Shown piece after piece: positions 44 through 17,472 of a stretch of DNA of 20,000 bases. The translations under genes and the position numbers were made by a program. Positions within the stretch are counted from its first letter, which is position 1, and each line of letters starts with the position of its first letter. The notes below the pieces were generated by a model. That model had not been told where the DNA came from. It did no database searches and saw only the letters and a list, made by a program, of their open reading frames with translations. The stretch comes from Albugo candida (Eukaryota): the NCBI GenBank assembly GCA_040437565.1, contig JBDOQK010000011.1, forward strand, positions 616,694 to 636,693, in the 5' to 3' direction.

Positions 44-1447
44 ATGAAATTGCTCAAACGACAAATCGGTGAGAAAGATGGAGCTGGTCATGTTATTCTC
101 CTTGCAGAAGAATCCGAAGACATGTGGCATATCTATAATCTTATACAAGTTTCCGATCAGATCAAAACCTCGACCATACGAAAAGTTGCAAATCTTTGCA
201 TTTTCCAAGGAAATGCTAAGCTGTAACATGCTCGTAGGTCGTAAAGGAAGGCGCAACTGGGTCCACGTCTAGCCAACGTGTACGCTTGAATCTCCAGATA
301 CAAGTGAGCTATCTCTTTTCTGATCTGATCGACTCAACTGAGACTATCCGTGGTAGATCGAAGAATTTCATTTCGACCCAACGCAATGTGCACTTCGTAT
401 CAAAGGAAAGAATGTGATGGAAAATCCCCATGTCCGTGTAGGTGATGAACAAGCAATACATCGACAAAATCCATTACCAACGTTTTTCATCATAGCTGGG
501 CGCCTATCACACTCTGGATTTGGAAATGAATCAAAAGTTTACACTGACTAAAGAGTGCTGGGATCTCGTGTCATTGGAGCGAATTGAAATGGCTTGTGAT
601 ATTTCCAAAACCGCTGAACTTGGCGCTGTGGTTATGCAACTTGGTCTAGCACATTTGTGTCTGATCAAAAGCCACATGACAGTAATAAAAGCACGGGTAG
701 AGATGAATATTGCAAAGAAGCGAACTGGTAGCACCGCACATGGCAAGTGTGTCATCAAATTTTACGAAAGTGTAATGCAAGCAATCAAGCGACATTTTGA
801 TTTCAGTCTGCTGAAATGTGTCATCCTTGCCAGTCCGGGATTTGTCAAGGAAGATTTTCACAAGTATTTGATGGAACAGGCTGTGCGACAAGATGATAAA
901 TTACTGCTAGAGAATAAGAGTAAATTTCTATTATGTCATTCATCATCGGGACACAAGCACGCACTGGATGAAGTCTTGAACGACGCTGTACGTGTTGTAG
1001 GACTGGAGACTATCGAATGGTGCACCGACTTACTGATTTGTTCTTTAATAGGCTGTGTTATCCCAAGTTGCGGATACAAATGCTGTAGAAGATGTCAAGT
1101 GTCTAGATACTTTTTTCAAAATGCTCCACGAGGATCAAGATCGTGCGTACTATGGCTACAAACACATTATGAAAGCGGACGAACAACTGGCCATTGACAC
1201 TCTCATGATCACTGATGAGTTGTTCAGATCAGAGGAAATTAAAACTCGAAGAAGATACATCGATCTGGTTGAAAGTGTACGGGAGCACGGAGGCAACGTG
1301 CGGCTCTTTAGCAGTATGCACATTTCTGGCGAGAAGCTCGGACAGCTGAGCGGAATCGCCGCTATTTTGAGGTATCCTTTACCGGAATTGGACGATCCAG
1401 AAGACGATTCCGAAGAAGAAGAAAAAACAAGTCGGCCGCAGGAGTAA
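44..1447 (+). CDS. PELO: Protein pelota / Dom34 (ribosome rescue factor, eRF1 family), ~391 aa; exons 44-184, 238-303, 357-437, 496-987, 1052-1447
   Basis: Spliced translation gives MKLLKRQI...EESEDMWHIYNLI...STIRKVVKEGATGS...[25 protein letters not shown]...ASPGFVKEDF...HSSSGHKHALDEVL...RAYYG...LFSSMHISGEKLGQLSGIAAILRYPLPEL, all typical pelota blocks. Four GT-AG introns (53, 53, 58, 64 nt) restore one frame. Confidence 0.96.
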
Positions 1448-2199: not shown

Positions 2200-4752
2200 A
2201 TGATGATGGAAGTACCACCATGGAAGAAACATTGTGTGGCAATGGATCCAGAAACCAAAGAAGACTTGAACCCTGCAAACAACAAGGATTCAGAGTGGAA
2301 ATCCTCAAATATGTCCATTATCGCTCAATTCCAGCAAGATGATGCAAGTTTGTTCTCGTAAACGAATGACCATCGAGTGGCGCCTAATGTCTTTATTCAG
2401 GGAACAAGAATTGGACCGCAGATTGATCTTCCTCTGACATCCACCGTATGTCAACTTGAAGAGCTGGTGAATCAATTACAAGAAAACGGAAGTACGAAAA
2501 CACCGTATTCCTTCTACGTCAATGATACCGAAATCAGCAAATCTCTTGACATTACTGTCAAACAATTGGTACGTTTGCTTTCAAGTGTAATTTCGAAGTA
2601 TCTATTGACCGCCTTTACAACGTTGAAATGCTTCACAGGGTATCTCAACGGAAGCAGCACTGACAATCACATTTCAACCTTTAGCTGTGTTTCGAGTGCG
2701 TCCAGTGACGCGATGTAGCGATACACTTGAAGGTCACTCTGAAGCGATATTACATGTGAGTTTCAGCCCAGATGGAAAGAAGCTTGCAAGTGGAGGTGGA
2801 GATGCTACTGTGCGTTTCTGGGACACATCGACTTGCTTACCCAAATTCACTGGCCGTGGTCACAAGCATCATGTGCTTTGCACGGCTTGGTCTCCTGATG
2901 GGGAAAGGTTTTTATCAGGAGATAAAGTTGGCGAAATGCGTTTGTGGGACCCTTTGACAGGAAAGCAAATCGGGCAGCCAATCAAGGGTCATAAGCAGTG
3001 GATCACATCACTTAGCTGGGAGCCAATGCATGCAAACGCATCTTGCGAACGCTTTGCAAGTGCTTCCAAAGATAGCATGATCAAAGTGTGGAATGCACGT
3101 ACTGGTCGCCAAATCGCGTCTCTTTCTGGGCATGTGGACTCGGTCGAGTGCGTCAAGTGGGGAGGTGAAGGACTATTATACAGTGCTTCAAGAGACCGCA
3201 CTATCAAAGTTTGGGCAATGAATTCTGATGATCACACTGGCAAACTCATTCGTACTTTGACCGGACATGGCCACCGAATCAATTCATTAGCACTGAATGT
3301 CGATTATGTGTGCAGAACGGGGCCATTTGACCATGCAAACACGACATTTTCAGGTCGCGATCAGATGCATAAGGCAGCACTGACTCGATATCAGAATGTA
3401 CNNNNNNNNNNNNNNNNNNNNNNNNNNNNNNNNNNNNNNNNNNNNNNNNNNNNNNNNNNNNNNNNNNNNNNNNNNNNNNNNNNNNNNNNNNNNNNNNNNN
3501 NGACGCGATGTAGCGATACACTTGAAGGTCACTCTGAAGCGATATTACATGTGAGTTTCAGCCCAGATGGAAAGAAGCTTGCAAGTGGAGGTGGAGATGC
3601 TACTGTGCGTTTCTGGGACACATCGACTTGCTTACCCAAATTCACTGGCCGTGGTCACAAGCATCATGTGCTTTGCACGGCTTGGTCTCCTGATGGGGAA
3701 AGGTTTTTATCAGGAGATAAAGTTGGCGAAATGCGTTTGTGGGACCCTTTGACAGGAAAGCAAATCGGGCAGCCAATCAAGGGTCATAAGCAGTGGATCA
3801 CATCACTTAGCTGGGAGCCAATGCATGCAAACGCATCTTGCGAACGCTTTGCAAGTGCTTCCAAAGATAGCATGATCAAAGTGTGGAATGCACGTACTGG
3901 TCGCCAAATCGCGTCTCTTTCTGGGCATGTGGACTCGGTCGAGTGCGTCAAGTGGGGAGGTGAAGGACTATTATACAGTGCTTCAAGAGACCGCACTATC
4001 AAAGTTTGGGCAATGAATTCTGATGATCACACTGGCAAACTCATTCGTACTTTGACCGGACATGGCCACCGAATCAATTCATTAGCACTGAATGTCGATT
4101 ATGTGTGCAGAACGGGGCCATTTGACCATGCAAACACGACATTTTCAGGTCGCGATCAGATGCATAAGGCAGCACTGACTCGATATCAGAATGTACGAAA
4201 GAATCAACCGGAACGCTTGGTCTCAGGATCTGACGATTACACATTATTTTTCTGGGAGCCAGCCGTAAGCTAGAAGAAAAAGCATATGATGTTATCTAAT
4301 ATTTGCCTGCAGGAGAATAAAAAGCCATTGGAGAGATTAACCGGTCATGTCCAGCCAGTGAATCATATCTGCTTTTCACCAGACGGACGATACTTTGCAA
4401 GTGCTTCTTTTGACAAAAAGGTCAAAATCTGGAATGGCCACACGGGAAAATTTATCGCAACTCTGAGTGGGCACGTTGGAGCTGTGTATCAAGTTTGCTG
4501 GTCTAGTGACAGTCGATTGATCGTTAGTGCAAGCAAAGATTCAACAGTCAAAGTATGGGAATTAGCCGACTTGAAAAAAGCTAAAGTCACGTTACCTGGG
4601 CATGCAGATGAGGTATATGCGCTTGACTGGTCTCCCAACGGTGACAAAGTAGCTTCTGGAAGCAAGGATCGTACCATCAAAATGTACGTTCGGCCATTTG
4701 CTTCAACTTTGAGCTATAACGATTGGTGTACTTGTGCAGATGGAAGCACTGA
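2200..4752 (+). CDS. NLE1: Notchless homolog / Rsa4 (NLE domain + WD40 repeats, 60S biogenesis), ~508 aa after collapsing the duplicated segment; exons 2200-2343, 2401-2568, 2639-4264 (includes gap and duplicate), 4313-4683, 4740-4752
   Basis: NLE/UBL domain (AQFQQDDGTRIGPQIDLP...PYSFYVND...STEAALTITFQPLAVFRVRPVTRCS), then WD40 repeats (GHSEAILHVSFSPDG, ERLVSGSDDYTLFFW, YFASASFDKKVKIW, LPGHADEVYALDWSPNG...IKIWKH*). The start ATG is one of three tandem ATGs, so it is uncertain. Confidence 0.95.
2707..4196. repeat. Apparently exact 695-bp direct duplication (2707-3401 and 3502-4196) flanking a 100-N scaffold gap; probable unmerged contig overlap
   Basis: Sequence after the N run restarts at gacgcgatgtagcgatac, identical to 2707. 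ORF translations from the two copies are identical, with a 795-bp offset. Confidence 0.95.
3402..3501. other. Assembly gap (100 N)
   Basis: Run of n characters. Confidence 0.99.
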
Positions 4753-4864: not shown

Positions 4865-5587
4865 ATGAAACGATCTCATGAAGCAAGCAGTAGAGTACTA
4901 ATGTTTCACTTCTCCGATCCCAGACAGACATCAGTGAATAAGAATTCAATGGAAAATTGTCGCACCCAAAACCTTTGTGCTGATTGGGAAGACAAACTGA
5001 AAAAACTTCGTCTAGACGACTCGGGTCCTCGACCTGGTCAAAGAACAAAGCGAAATCGTGATGCTACAGTACCTATCAGTAGGGCAAAATGTTTCTTTTT
5101 GCTACATCTTATGTGTGACTCCAACATGTAGATGCATTCAGCAGGATGATGATGAATGTAGGGTCTGAAAACAGGTTTTCAGACGACGTAAAAAGGAATT
5201 TGGGAGTACAGCGTTGCGGCGTCTGTCGTCAGCCGAACACGGACGTGCAGAGAAAAAGTAAGTTGAGAAAAGAGCCACAACAGCATCAGATTTGGCGATA
5301 CTTTTCAGGCTCCGATCATGCAATGACAAGACCCGAGATGAACAAGACGTCAAATACCATGCAGACGCTCGTAAAGTGTCATCACTGTGAGCAGAATATT
5401 GGGGTTTGTTGCGCTCGCAGTTGCGATGAATGTGATTCCGTTTTTTGCATCTTCTGCACCACATTGATGTACGTTGTCGCTCATTGTAATGGATCAAGTA
5501 ATAAAAAATTTTACTTGCAGATGTCTTGACAACGAAAAATGTTTATGCTTTCCATGTCACGATGGATTCGCCATTCAACCAAAATAA
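4865..5587 (+). CDS. Siva-like cysteine-rich zinc-binding protein, ~205 aa; exons 4865-5078, 5132-5468, 5521-5587
   Basis: Introns 5079-5131 (gtaggg...catgtag) and 5469-5520 (gtacgt...ttgcag) join the ORFs. The C-terminus CHHCEQNIGVCCARSCDECDSVFCIFCTTLICLDNEKCLCFPCHD resembles the SIVA C-terminal Cys pattern as recalled, with an upstream CGVC pair. The first exon is less certain. Confidence 0.7.
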
Positions 5588-8500
5588 ACTTGCTTGAATA
5601 AATTTCCATCCGAACGCAGATCTTCTACCGACCACAAAGACGCGCTCACATCACTGACTGAAAGATGCTTCATCGGCTCTTGTGTGTGGCATTCGGTCTC
5701 AGATATAACTTGGCTACTAATTGTCCTTTGTTGGGTCTCGGAAGTCTCTAGAGCGCAGAATTAATGAGGCATTATCTTTTGTTGACGAAACAGAGTAAAT
5801 TACCTGTATCTCGGTTTTGATATCGAAATTGGGCAAATGGATTTTTATCCAAGCCTGCACAGAGCATCATCTTAGTGTTAGGGAGATCTTTATCGTCTAA
5901 ACGCATTTTCCTCGCTTCTTTAGATAGCAAACGAGCTCATAGTTTGAGATTTATACTGCTGTGATTGCGACGTACTAGAGTGATCAAGGTAACCAGGGTC
6001 GAACTTCAAAGGTGAGCAGGCTAATTGCGGTTCTGCTATGGAAGAAGCCATGCTTTTTTCTTTCTGTAACATTTCTGTGGGTACTGCTACGTTGAGATGG
6101 AGCTGACACATTTTCTTGGTCGACGAGCTCGGCTTCTCTTGACGTCCACGCCTTGATGCACACACAGCACGAACAGGTTTAGGCTTGCTTCGGTCGTATT
6201 TTACAAAGGCAAAGGGATCGACTGCTTTTGAAGATTCGGGGCTTCGATACCTTTCTTGACTGTCTCTCAAGGTACATTCTCTGCTGATTTTGTCGCTATA
6301 ATTTCGATGGCGCTTTCGGGGTGTCACAATACCATGTTGTTGATCTGGAGAGATCATTTTCGTAGGCTTCATAAAATGCCTGATAGTTTGCTGTTTTGCA
6401 TTGGTGTGATGTGCAGTCAGGACGTTAACATATTTTGTGAATTTCTTCGTCTCTTTGAGATGACTAAGCTTCTCTTTCTTCAACTTGTCTCGTTCCAGCG
6501 ATCGCTGCTGCCGCATCCCCTCAAGGAATGGGCTACCATACTCGACATACCCACTTGTTTCCAATGGTAGGTTTATATAATCGTCTAATCCAACATACTG
6601 TTCATGCATCAATCGTATCTGCACCCATTCGTTCATCATAAGTTCGCATGGCATAGGTGCTAAGAGTGTAGTAGGAGCTTTGATCATGTCATCAAACGAT
6701 AAGAGCTTCTTGCCACAGAACACAATTAAGCAACATGTCTGCTTAGTGTTCCTGGGGTCCATCGGTCCGACACATTCACTTCCAATTTTGATTTGCAAAT
6801 TCTTACGATCATGTTGAATAATTGATTGAATTTTGAAAATGACGATGGATTGTGCTTGCGTTACCAAGCTTGTACAGAACTTGATGCTTTTGCACATAAT
6901 CTCACTCATGTACCCTGGATTTGCGACTGCAAGTTGTTGTATTGACCGTATCTGCATGCGACGCAAATCTTTCTCTGTTGATTCAACTACTCCATGGATC
7001 TGCCGTAGGACAGTGCTGTCGTTTCTGGTATTCCAAATACGTAAGTAGATGGTACGCCACAAATCGTATGCTGTCCAAAGCTTTTTACCCAACTGACGGT
7101 GTCTCAAATATTCCACGATGGCTGCGACAAAGCACTCTGTGAGGTAGTATTTGAATATCAAGGGAAATAATACCAGTCATTAAACGTTTCGCATTTTCTA
7201 CTATCTCATCACGTTCGAGCTGTAAACCAGTATCATTGATATCTATTCTTCCCAGAGCGGACTGGAGAAGAACGTTGTATTTGAATAATTTTCCTCGTCC
7301 TTGAGAAACTGAGGTATCGGTCCTGACGGCAAACCGCAAACTAAGTTTGCTTAATGCGCTAATATCAAGACGCTCGTTTCTCCGTAGCGGATGTTGCCCT
7401 CCATGACACGCCATCAAGAGTTCCAACAGTGTTGTGGTTGTCACGTCTATGACGTCGAGCTCTCGAATCCGTTTCATCGTCGAACGGTCCAGCGAATATT
7501 GATTCATCAATTCTCCGACATTCGTTTTGCAAACCTTATTTGCTTGCTTCGCCAGCGTGACCATACCCTCTTCGAGTAGGTCATCCAAGACTTGCGACAA
7601 TATATTTCTTGCATGTGAGTCGGACTCGTCATTTCGCTGTTTCCGAATATCGTGAATCAAAAATGATTGCTAGTCGTCCAAAGTCATAATCATCAATCTA
7701 AAAGGTGGCTATAACAACATACTTGTAGCCAAGACAGAGCGCTTTCCACGTCGTAGACTAGTAGAAGGAGGTAGTGAAAAATTTACAAGGATGCATGTAC
7801 CGACATACTTGCACCACGAATGACTTCTCCGTTGATAAATTCTGCAAGTTTGCTATGCATTGCACTTCTTATAGGAACCATTTCTGGATTGCTACAATAT
7901 CCGCAAATATAACGAAGAGAGGTCGACAGGTTGGGCCATCTGGCCATCTTACTCACGTAAATAGCTCTTCGTAGAATTTGACCATCTTGGATTTGGTCAT
8001 GATGACGGCCATACCGTGATTGTCGACTCCATGCCTTCCGGCCCGTCCAGCCATTCGCAAGATATCGGACGGTGAGTACTCAACGAAACCGTCCTCACCG
8101 ATGTAGACTTGCGTTGACTTGATGATGACCAATTTCGCTGTCTAGATTCAGTGATGATTAAACGGCTCAGGTAACAAGTTCTGATCTACCAGATTAGTAT
8201 CAACGAAGAACGAAGTCGTGCAACTGTTCGATGGATTTCTCGTAAATATCATACAGCTGAAACTCGTCTGAGCAATTACCATAACACTTGAATCTTTCCC
8301 GACTTGAATTCTTGATAAATAGAAGCCCTTCATAGTGCGGCCATAAAGCTACTGATAGTATACGTTTACGAAAGCTACTCACCTACTGTTATCATCCATT
8401 GCAGCATGATAAAAGCCAATATTATGCTTCAAAAGATGTTGTAGCTTGTCATCGTGCTTTGTGATGAGGAATGTCAAGCGAATATGATGGAATATGTCGA

Positions 8501-9827
8501 CCTACAACATTGATTTTTGACGATTTGTCTTGATCTTCCAAGGGTTTTGCAAGCTTCCTGAGAGTTATCGCCACATTCAGATCTCTCACCGAGCACCAAA
8601 TCAGTAAAGTTTCAGGTACTTTGCAAGCTCCTCGCATGACTTTCGGGAATTGCAAAATATGATGCTCGGTCTTTCACTGGGGTAGCTCTTCAGAATCTCT
8701 ACTACTTTCTGGTCCGATATTCTATAATGATATTAAATGAGTTTACGCTGGATATACCCGATGAGTAACCTTTCATGTACGAATGGGTTGTAGTGAGGAG
8801 CTACGTCCAACACCATGTTTGTCAATGGGACTACGATGACGCGCATCATGCATTAACCGCTATATCAAGCGCCTCTACAAAAGCAAAATGTACCCAGCCT
8901 ATGTTGAAACCCAAACTGCTTCACTATAAGAATGAAGGATGTTCAGACGTCTCCGTGATCAGCGCTTACACTAATCTGCATGTCTTCTGGGCAATCGATC
9001 CAAGTTGCAATGTCTTGAACATTGGAAATTGTATTAGAGACTGCCACTATTCTTCTACGATAGTGGCCATGACGCTTATTTTAGTCTTTTCTTCACACGT
9101 GTATCAAATTTAATCACATTTTATCATTTGAAGTGATCGGATGGTATTGTGACAGTTTGGTCCGGACAATCGCAACTTCAAGTGCGGCCCCACGAATGAC
9201 ATCCCCAATTTGATCCATTTCATCAATCAGCAGCAGTCCGACGGATTTTAGGAACATCTGCAATGTGAAAGTCTGCAGCTCTAGCCAAATTGAGTGATAA
9301 AACCACTCACGGTAGAAGAATTTCTGGTCATGCTGTCCCACTTTTTTGGAAATGGCAACAGCATTATTAGCTACCCCCAAGCTTTACCCTTTTACCTTTT
9401 CTGGAGTGGTAAGAATCACATGTGCTTTTTTCCATTCGCTTTCTGTAATTTCATCCTCCCCTGATACTTTCAGAAAATTCAACCCCAGCGATTTTTCTCC
9501 AAAACGCGTCTTCCAATCCTTCCATCTTGCCAGCCAGAATTGTCGCAGCTATCCTCAATAATCACGTAACACGACGCACCTATCGAGCAAGAGTCTTTTG
9601 TAGGGCAGAAGATATATGATTTTCTTTTGACGGGTTTCGTGATTCCGATGAAATTGAAACAAGCTGGCTTCCAAAATGAGAGTTTTTCCACTTCGATTAG
9701 GGGCACACACAAGAAGATTTTCCCTCCTCGTAAATGCTTTTGATAAAGTGGTCGACTGGAGCTCGGTTAGGTCTTGATGCGGAATGCACTCATCAAATGG
9801 AGATGGAAGCACTTGGTTGACGCGCAT
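5575..9827 (-). CDS. HFM1: MER3/HFM1-like Ski2-family helicase (meiotic crossover helicase family), multi-exon, with divergent motifs, probable Sec63-like region and long low-complexity C-terminus
   Basis: Spliced reading gives NLLVCAPNRSGKT, RWKDWKTRFG, HVILTTPEKWDSMTR, LLLIDEMDQIGDVIRGAALEVAIVR, RIVAVSNTISNVQDIATWI, PSIIFCNSRKSCEELA, IGFYHAAM, AKLVIIKSTQVY...EYSPSDILRMAGRAGRHGVDNHGMAVIMT, in Mer3/HFM1 order. The 3' exons 5917-5804 and 5747-5575 join via GT-AG introns 5918-5975 and 5748-5803. Not every internal junction was resolved. Confidence 0.82.
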
Positions 9828-9880
9828 TTATCGAAATCCTTTTGTATCAATAAGTGCGGTATGCCAAATGCAAATTTAGC

Positions 9881-9904
9881 TTCAACTTCAACTTCAACTT
9901 CAAC
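9881..9904. repeat. Short tandem repeat (TTCAAC)4 upstream of the helicase start
   Basis: ttcaacttcaacttcaacttcaac read directly. Confidence 0.85.
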
Positions 9905-17372: not shown

Positions 17373-17472
17373 NNNNNNNNNNNNNNNNNNNNNNNNNNNN
17401 NNNNNNNNNNNNNNNNNNNNNNNNNNNNNNNNNNNNNNNNNNNNNNNNNNNNNNNNNNNNNNNNNNNNNNNN
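17373..17472. other. Assembly gap (100 N) inside the copia RT/RH region
   Basis: Run of n characters. Confidence 0.99.

Follow-up and report, generated by a model that had tools for sequence, protein, structure and literature searches.

We analyzed a 20,000-nucleotide (nt) stretch of Albugo candida DNA (contig JBDOQK010000011.1, positions 616,694 to 636,693, called the window here at its full length), in which the minus strand carries a gene for a Mer3/HFM1-like helicase. By homology and phylogeny, the predicted protein is shown to be the oomycete orthologue of Mer3/HFM1, a Ski2-like superfamily 2 (SF2) protein with a single helicase cassette. On balance, we believe that this Albugo-lineage orthologue has kept its fold, frame, introns, and transcription while many of the residues that couple ATP hydrolysis to translocation were replaced, and that it acts mainly as a scaffold. 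The replaced coupling residues are the motif II histidine, the central residue of motif III, the glutamine of motif VI, most of motif V, and parts of motifs I, Ia, and IVa. From these changes we infer that motor activity was weakened or lost; the role of the protein would probably be that of a DNA-bound scaffold more than that of a helicase.

The open frames on the minus strand from about 9830 to 5580 are short, with frequent frame switches. The gene model was assembled by hand from reading frames, GT-AG sites, and colinearity with homologues.

5920 to 9827, minus strand: Mer3/HFM1-like gene, 17 exons, 1,009 amino acids, stop included
9827-9580, 9525-9396, 9340-9311, 9257-9118, 9054-8970, 8918-8894, minus strand: exons 1 to 6
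8830-8770, 8721-8620, 8557-8506, 8456-8383, 8327-8280, 8223-8190, minus strand: exons 7 to 12
8141-7957, 7891-7809, 7757-7723, 7669-7174, 7121-5920, minus strand: exons 13 to 17
7174 to 7669, minus strand: exon 16, start of the Sec63 (helical bundle) domain (Pfam PF02889, E 1e-10), 60% identity to the Albugo laibachii protein

All 16 introns are GT-AG and measure 48 to 65 nt. The exons traced in the sequence-only reading had been described as open, and the frame is indeed open over all 17 exons and 1,009 codons. The ATG at 9827 is directly preceded by an in-frame stop. The spliced model is colinear with homologues over every junction, and its residues 1 to 794 align to a cassette profile from 25 homologues. 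At the exon 5/6 junction, the alternative 8972/8923 is equally possible and makes a one-residue difference. Pfam places a DEAD/DEAH helicase domain in exon 1, and the whole gene encodes one cassette composed of RecA1, RecA2, a winged helix (WH), and a Sec63 unit. The window has a G+C content of 42% and two 100-N gaps, both away from the Mer3 gene. About 55 to 75 nt upstream of the start codon, at 9880 to 9904, lies a perfect hexamer repeat of 4.2 copies of CTTCAA (TTGAAG on the gene strand).

The closest protein among 5.8 billion was from A. laibachii Nc14, where it is annotated as “ATP-dependent DNA helicase mer3 putative” (740 amino acids); a relative labeled mer3 was thus already known in a public database. 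This entry is a fragment that starts just before motif V and does not include RecA1. The spliced model is 59% identical to it over 754 aligned positions by BLAST and 63% identical by alignment. A full HMMER search with the A. laibachii protein over 1.84 billion representatives gave 2,057 matches. The best full-length matches to the spliced model were all single-cassette proteins of about 30% identity, the top one being from Aphanomyces stellatus (P0004), whose nearest relative is from Aphanomyces euteiches. As an aside, the annotation of P0004 contains two insertions, one of 17 residues immediately behind TPEK and one of 10 residues within motif III; both resemble unspliced short introns of a gene model, and the first sits at the position of intron 2 in the window.

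The predicted Atlas model of the A. laibachii protein had an HFM1 cluster as its best match (TM 0.58 over residues 1 to 502), and this orthologue has a Sec63 domain and a weak winged helix-turn-helix match. The best-scoring solved structures by sequence were Slh1, Brr2, and ASCC3, with no Mer3 structure among the solved-structure matches. A word-index search with the A. laibachii protein matched only itself and one Brr2-like fragment, and metagenome single-protein scans with P0001 and exon 17 found no relative.

For phylogeny, 286 near-complete cassettes were cut by profile from 220 proteins. The named HFM1, ASCC3, Brr2, and Slh1 references came from a search with the Aphanomyces protein, and most tips are unnamed. 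In the FastTree tree, rooted at the midpoint, the window cassette grouped with two Aphanomyces proteins (support 0.995). This group was nested in a clade of 10 (support 0.962), itself in a clade of 62 (support 1.0) that contained 9 of 9 named HFM1 proteins and two “DNA 3'-5' helicase” proteins but no protein named ASCC3, BRR2, or SLH1. Animal and amoebozoan HFM1 fell in the same clade as the window protein. An IQ-TREE fast run on a 32-sequence subset reproduced this nesting (SH-aLRT 91.9 to 100 along the path), so that the Mer3/HFM1-like identity proposed from the letters alone is upheld by both trees. Because the protein branches with Aphanomyces, where the oomycete orthologue is expected, we treat it as an orthologue and not as a paralogue.

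Against this canonical background, the helicase motifs of the window protein are altered as follows.

9681 to 9704, minus strand: motif I (Walker A), APNRSGKT, residues 42 to 49; GKT kept, Thr-Gly changed to Asn-Arg
9591 to 9608, minus strand: motif Ia region, LPYKRL, residues 74 to 79; AP.KAL in the family
9213 to 9224, minus strand: motif II, DEMD, residues 148 to 151; Asp-Glu kept, His151 changed to Asp
9030 to 9038, minus strand: motif III, SNT, residues 189 to 191; Ser and Thr kept, Ala190 changed to Asn
8397 to 8411, minus strand: motif IVa region, YHAAM, residues 307 to 311; HHAGL or HHAGM in the family
8133 to 8222, minus strand: motif V, CTTSFFVDTNL then TAK, residues 333 to 346; TSTLA.GVNLPAH in the family
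8034 to 8057, minus strand: motif VI, RMAGRAGR, residues 372 to 379; Gln372 changed to Arg, both GRAGR arginines kept

Translation confirmed the five motif strings of the sequence-only reading at these minus-strand positions, and its statement that GKT, DE, and GRAGR remain was correct. Motif V is split by the 48-nt intron 12 (8189-8142), with CTTSFFVDTNL at 8190-8222 and TAK at 8141-8133. In the spliced protein, the motifs have the correct order and spacing and are colinear with those of 25 of the 25 top single-cassette homologues, which argues that the strings are not chance matches.

The changed residues are rare or absent in the HFM1 clade. Among its 61 other members, the fourth position of motif II is His in 60 and Gln in 1, motif III is SAT in 60, and the first position of motif VI is Gln in all 61. 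No Asn-Arg was found in motif I among the 59 clade cassettes with residues there. Both H151D and Q372R are shown by this comparison to be unique in the family. The combination that marks Mer3/HFM1, a DExH motif II with a SAT motif III and a Gln-first motif VI, is therefore not present in the window protein. Neither are DEMD and RMAGRAGR common across oomycete Mer3, since the Aphanomyces proteins have DEIH together with QMIGRAGR or QMLGRAGR.

In the full set of 286 cassettes, DEMD occurs once, in the window. A His/Gln pair at motifs II and VI is present in 268, and 16 of the 17 other cassettes that deviate from it occupy the C-terminal cassette position of long proteins, where the known inactive cassette of Brr2 also lies. 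Arg opens motif VI in three cassettes, two of which have an acidic fourth residue in motif II (Asp in the window, Glu in P0111). The P0111 cassette (1267-2062), the only other acid-Arg combination in the set, is the degenerate C-terminal cassette of a two-cassette protein. The residues that hydrolysis most directly requires are found in the window protein, namely, Lys48, Thr49, Asp148, Glu149, Arg376, and Arg379. Also kept are motifs Ib and IV, the Arg-Gly that follows motif II, Ser189, and Thr191.

The changes extend beyond the named motifs. As the invariant set we took the 94 columns in which identity across 59 clade members (all but the window and Aphanomyces proteins) reaches at least 90%. 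The window keeps 66 of 93 of these residues, compared with 84 of 94 and 77 of 90 in the two Aphanomyces proteins and with 87% in the lowest other member. In total, 28 of 94 are not kept in the window, with 1 gapped and 27 replaced, and H151D and Q372R are 2 of these 27. The replacements are T44N, E82D, T104S, D106E, H151D, A190N, P193S, P219L, F238H, L242S, L260I, G303N, H307Y, G310A, E320Y, T336S, L337F, A338F, G340D, V341T, P344T, Q372R, E413R, L416M, P458D, E533H, and L547I. The loss falls in equal share on the RecA core (22 of 74) and on the WH/Sec63 part (6 of 20).

The comparison with A. laibachii is limited to the 43 invariant columns within its fragment. Both species keep 26 of these, and 2 are changed differently. 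Six columns carry the same replacement in both (T336S, L337F, A338F, G340D, Q372R, and L547I), five are changed in the window only (V341T and P344T among them), and four are changed in A. laibachii only (N342T, L343Q, R376L, and L475M). Motif VI of A. laibachii is RMAGLAGR, with the first GRAGR arginine changed to Leu. The shared rewrite of motif V and the shared Q372R imply that these changes arose before the A. laibachii split and have been held since. By the same alignment, other canonical residues of motifs V and VI are being lost independently in each Albugo lineage.

Identity between the two species is 78% in RecA2, 64% in the WH, 67% and 59% in the two portions of Sec63, and 55% for the C-terminal region. 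The RecA2 part, which contains the altered motifs V and VI, is therefore the best conserved region between them. The orthologous part of A. laibachii is also an open frame. Intron 16 is read through in a 140-amino-acid fragment of a close relative, somewhat farther removed than the window species itself. Of its 111 exon codons, 4 differ from the window, versus 5 of 29 read-through codons (Fisher p 0.019); the sample behind this comparison is very small. The open frame of 1,009 codons in 17 exons with intact splice sites, the open A. laibachii part, the regional pattern of conservation, and the exon versus read-through differences together argue for constraint on the predicted protein.

Transcription was assessed using assembled contigs from two runs of one study (X18 and X19) and one run of a second study (X5), these studies being different from the possible sources of the window. 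No run was recorded as RNA; X18, X19, and X20 were taken as RNA by guess, and the depths are per contig and unrelated to expression level. Such contigs can show the presence of a splice form but neither its absence nor its amount. Seven predicted introns (1, 4, 10, 11, 14, 15, and 16) were matched to the base by contig joints with CT..AC ends in X18 and/or X19.

9526-9579, 9055-9117, 8328-8382, 8224-8279, 7758-7808, 7670-7722, and 7122-7173 (intron 16), minus strand: introns confirmed by contigs

One more intron toward the 3' end, 5803-5748, was also present as an exact joint. Joints with CT..AC ends that match the predicted introns are the pattern given by spliced transcripts, and these data show that the Mer3 gene is transcribed and spliced. 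The contigs of X20 had no joints, with 18 of 30 bins covered. The introns that flank the motif VI exon, 12 (8142-8189) and 13 (7892-7956), were unspliced in X18 and X19 contigs that were spliced at neighboring introns; retention of introns 12/13 would bring a stop codon shortly past motif V.

The same contigs allowed a check of the sequence itself. All five motif sites were covered by X18, X19, and X5 contigs, and every motif codon was identical to that of the window. Over 4,201 bases, the contigs differed from the window at two positions only: 7870, the third base of an Ile codon (a synonymous change by our codon reading), and 8732, inside intron 7. A 398-amino-acid database fragment differed from exon 17 at 1 of 397 residues, which indicates that the same species is present in the protein database. 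That the unusual residues are sequencing or assembly errors, a concern raised when the motifs were first read, can be set aside as extremely improbable, because contigs of three runs from two studies read all the motif codons identically and the database fragment agrees so closely with exon 17.

How the motif changes might act on the enzyme can be considered from related helicases. In the parts of PMC8025883 that deal with these contacts, the motif II His of the DEAH-box ATPase Prp2 bonds the motif III Ser, and the motif VI Gln bonds the motif III Thr. DEAD-box proteins are described there as having Asp in motif II and His in motif VI instead, “virtually swapping charges.” The sequence-only reading had assumed that the last residue of motif II pairs with the first of motif VI, His with Gln in DExH proteins and Asp with His in DEAD-box proteins. 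The contrast between DEAD-box Asp/His and His/Gln stands; the pairing needs modification, because in Prp2 each residue bonds a motif III Ser or Thr. In the Albugo protein, all three partners of this motif II-III-VI network are changed (Asp, Ser-Asn-Thr, and Arg). That H151D and Q372R form a compensating pair, as proposed from the letters, is a plausible hypothesis by this analogy; they may also be part of a general erosion.

In the mechanism that we propose, Gln372 to Arg and the conversion of motif V to Ser-Phe-Phe..Asp would have come first, before the split from A. laibachii, and would have been conserved afterwards, with further canonical residues still disappearing separately in each lineage. 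The protein would still bind recombination intermediates and perhaps nucleotide, the latter because Lys-Thr, Asp-Glu, and both arginines remain in the window species. It would act mainly by occupancy and by recruiting proteins, as ATPase-deficient yeast Mer3 largely does, with weak or no processive unwinding. In the sections of PMC10201424 on these alleles, ATPase-deficient yeast mer3 mutants have spore-viability defects that are mild compared with deletion, and inhibition of the STR complex by Mer3-K167A equals that by the wild type. Likewise, Brr2's C-terminal cassette, which is inactive, is described in part of PMC8220420 as binding nucleotide tightly and serving as a scaffold. Because so many other residues are changed and A. 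laibachii has lost Arg376, we favor a lost or much weakened coupling between hydrolysis and translocation.

Several observations weigh against a constrained scaffold. Since all core hydrolysis residues are present in the window, the protein may still be an ATPase. The loss of invariant residues is not confined to the motor and fits generally fast evolution as well as it fits a specific loss of the motor. The root-to-tip length of the window protein is high, at 1.86 versus a clade median of 1.37, though it is not the clade maximum (2.00). Evidence for selection on the gene is indirect and not codon based. Nine predicted introns (2, 3, 5 to 9, 12, and 13) appear in the contigs only in unspliced form. 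Finally, the frame breaks relative to A. laibachii near 5925-5935, cutting off a tail that looks coding.

5575 to 5936, minus strand: tail open reading frame in a frame other than that of Mer3, 5936-5804 joined to 5747-5575 over the confirmed intron 5803-5748

The Mer3 frame of the window ends at 5920, while the A. laibachii model continues in frame into a stretch that matches window positions 5924-5787 (tblastn, 49% over 49 amino acids, E 1e-8). The tail, in its different frame, is open to 5575; chance is unlikely to leave a run of about 100 codons open. A candidate 58-nt GT-AG intron, 5975-5918, would link the two frames and give a 1,086-amino-acid protein; its splicing was seen in no contig of those aligned, and it was kept out of the main model. 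The tail may thus reflect a recent cutoff by a 1-nt frame change, rare splicing, or separate translation, and the frame break could be a first sign of decay.

The mixture of kept and replaced residues also allows an active but rewired enzyme, in which Asp151 and Arg372 compensate for each other around motif III in place of His/Gln, ATP is still hydrolyzed, and DNA is perhaps clamped or unwound in a different mode. The resemblance to the DEAD-box arrangement at two positions (Asp/His there versus His/Gln in DExH proteins at motifs II and VI, as given in part of PMC8025883) makes such compensation a reasonable idea. It agrees with the Lys-Thr, Asp-Glu, and motif VI arginines kept in the window, with a Q372R and a derived motif V that are common to two species about 40% diverged and whose RecA2 is 78% conserved, and with the acidic motif II residue in two of the three Arg-first cassettes. 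However, one of those two is the strongly degenerate P0111 cassette, and Albugo provides a single independent lineage, too few for a test of covariation; the A. laibachii fragment begins after RecA1, with motif II outside it. A preserved ATPase is difficult to reconcile with the Arg376 loss seen in A. laibachii. Moreover, the pair accounts for only 2 of 27 evenly spread replacements and leaves the alterations of motifs V, IVa, Ia, and I unexplained. We consider this explanation unlikely. Less likely still is a more specific proposal, in which the DExH arrangement gave way to a DEAD-box-like Asp with a basic residue and a new conserved motif V, and Mer3 would bind ATP and clamp recombination intermediates without translocating, thereby promoting or protecting crossovers in a lineage related to Phytophthora, from which Mer3, Msh4, and Msh5 appear to be missing.

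The opposite view is that the gene is on its way to loss, a relic of a vanishing ZMM crossover pathway with constraint relaxed everywhere and no function remaining. The 28 invariant residues not kept are spread across all domains, the erosion is lineage specific and ongoing, the frame is broken ahead of a conserved tail, and several introns were found in unspliced form only. The wider setting fits as well. In Table 2 of PMC2488364, the row for Phytophthora ramorum/sojae has no entry for Mer3, Msh4, or Msh5; no Peronosporales protein was among the named matches of the search with the Aphanomyces protein; and A. candida races are described in part of PMC4384639 as largely clonal with occasional sexual exchange. 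These three points suggest weak or changing selection on the ZMM route in this part of the oomycetes. Nevertheless, a gene with no remaining function sits poorly with 1,009 open codons over 17 exons with intact splice sites, with an orthologous part that is open in A. laibachii too, with conservation that is region specific and reaches its highest value in RecA2, with exon differences that are rarer than read-through differences, and with a gene that is transcribed and spliced. We give this outcome a low probability. Lower again is our estimate for a divergent extra copy, the usual function being left to a canonical MER3 at another place in the genome. The sequence-only reading had offered a lineage-specific paralogue as one alternative, and the long branch and unique motifs would suit it. 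The protein sits, however, where the oomycete orthologue should, and no second Albugo-like sequence was found in that group among the 150 best representatives of the 1.84 billion-protein search with the A. laibachii protein. In addition, no Albugo protein was among the 120 best matches of the Aphanomyces protein, a weak point since most of these matches are unnamed. A conserved orthologue acting mainly as a scaffold is thus the reading that we retain.

If this reading is correct, the Albugo protein has some bearing on how Mer3 works. Yeast work suggests that much of the crossover role of Mer3 is ATPase independent, and the Albugo orthologue would be a natural test case, as its open frame, conservation, and transcription have outlasted the replacement of the coupling residues in at least two species. 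It would also mark an intermediate state in oomycete meiosis, with a canonical Mer3 in Aphanomyces, none in an older survey of Phytophthora, and an altered one in Albugo. The change at all three motif II-III-VI partners is an unusual natural experiment on DExH- versus DEAD-type active sites. Albugo is not culturable and not easily transformed, and the practical stakes are modest. Literature searches on Albugo Mer3, on oomycete Mer3/Msh4, and on inactive or degenerate Mer3/HFM1 returned no paper that, by its title or the start of its abstract, dealt with these substitutions or with a naturally inactive Mer3, most subscription journals being outside the search.

Elsewhere in the window, three other features were observed on the forward strand or in its gaps.

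496 to 1447, plus strand: eRF1-like release factor gene, with Pfam eRF1 domains 1, 2, and 3 in two overlapping frames
2707 to 3401 and 3502 to 4196, plus strand: exact direct repeat with a spacing of 795 nt, on both sides of a 100-N gap at 3402-3501, within a WD40-repeat gene (WDR3-like beta-propellers)
17373 to 17472: second 100-N run

The two overlapping frames of the eRF1 domains imply an intron or a frame change near 1052-1197. The repeat finding covers the first 300 nt (2707-3006 = 3502-3801), and identical tblastn matches 795 nt apart suggest that it extends to the gap. The repeat looks more like a scaffolding artifact than a real duplication.

We compared the Albugo protein with four known systems. 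Canonical Mer3/HFM1, for which the nearest named proteins are those of Aphanomyces stellatus and A. euteiches, has the same single cassette, is colinear over about 790 residues, and falls in the same clade in two trees. The window protein is only about 30% identical to it, with 27 of 93 invariants replaced versus 10 of 94 and 13 of 90 in the Aphanomyces proteins; it has Asp, Asn, and Arg in motifs II, III, and VI, a largely rewritten motif V, and altered motifs I, Ia, and IVa. The yeast mer3 alleles G166D and K167A, as described in part of PMC10201424, keep the fold and the partners, lose the motor, and retain much of the function, which is the mode proposed here. Those alleles are laboratory point mutants of Walker A, whereas in Albugo the Lys-Thr of this motif is unaltered, and many natural changes lie in the coupling and DNA-contacting motifs.

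The C-terminal cassette of Brr2 is likewise a Sec63-type, Ski2-like cassette that is degenerate, inactive, and described in part of PMC8220420 as a nucleotide-binding scaffold. The Albugo protein differs from it as a single cassette in the HFM1 clade that is far less degenerate than most such cassettes, and the in-frame stop before its start codon also sets it apart from a Brr2-type second cassette. DEAD-box proteins share with the Albugo protein the Asp that ends motif II and a basic residue that opens motif VI (PMC8025883, in the part on these motifs). In Albugo, however, the basic residue is Arg and not His. A DEAD-box protein has a core without WH and Sec63, while the Albugo protein has both, including the Sec63 domain, and its phylogeny is Ski2-like. 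Taken together, the likeness to DEAD-box proteins is confined to two positions.

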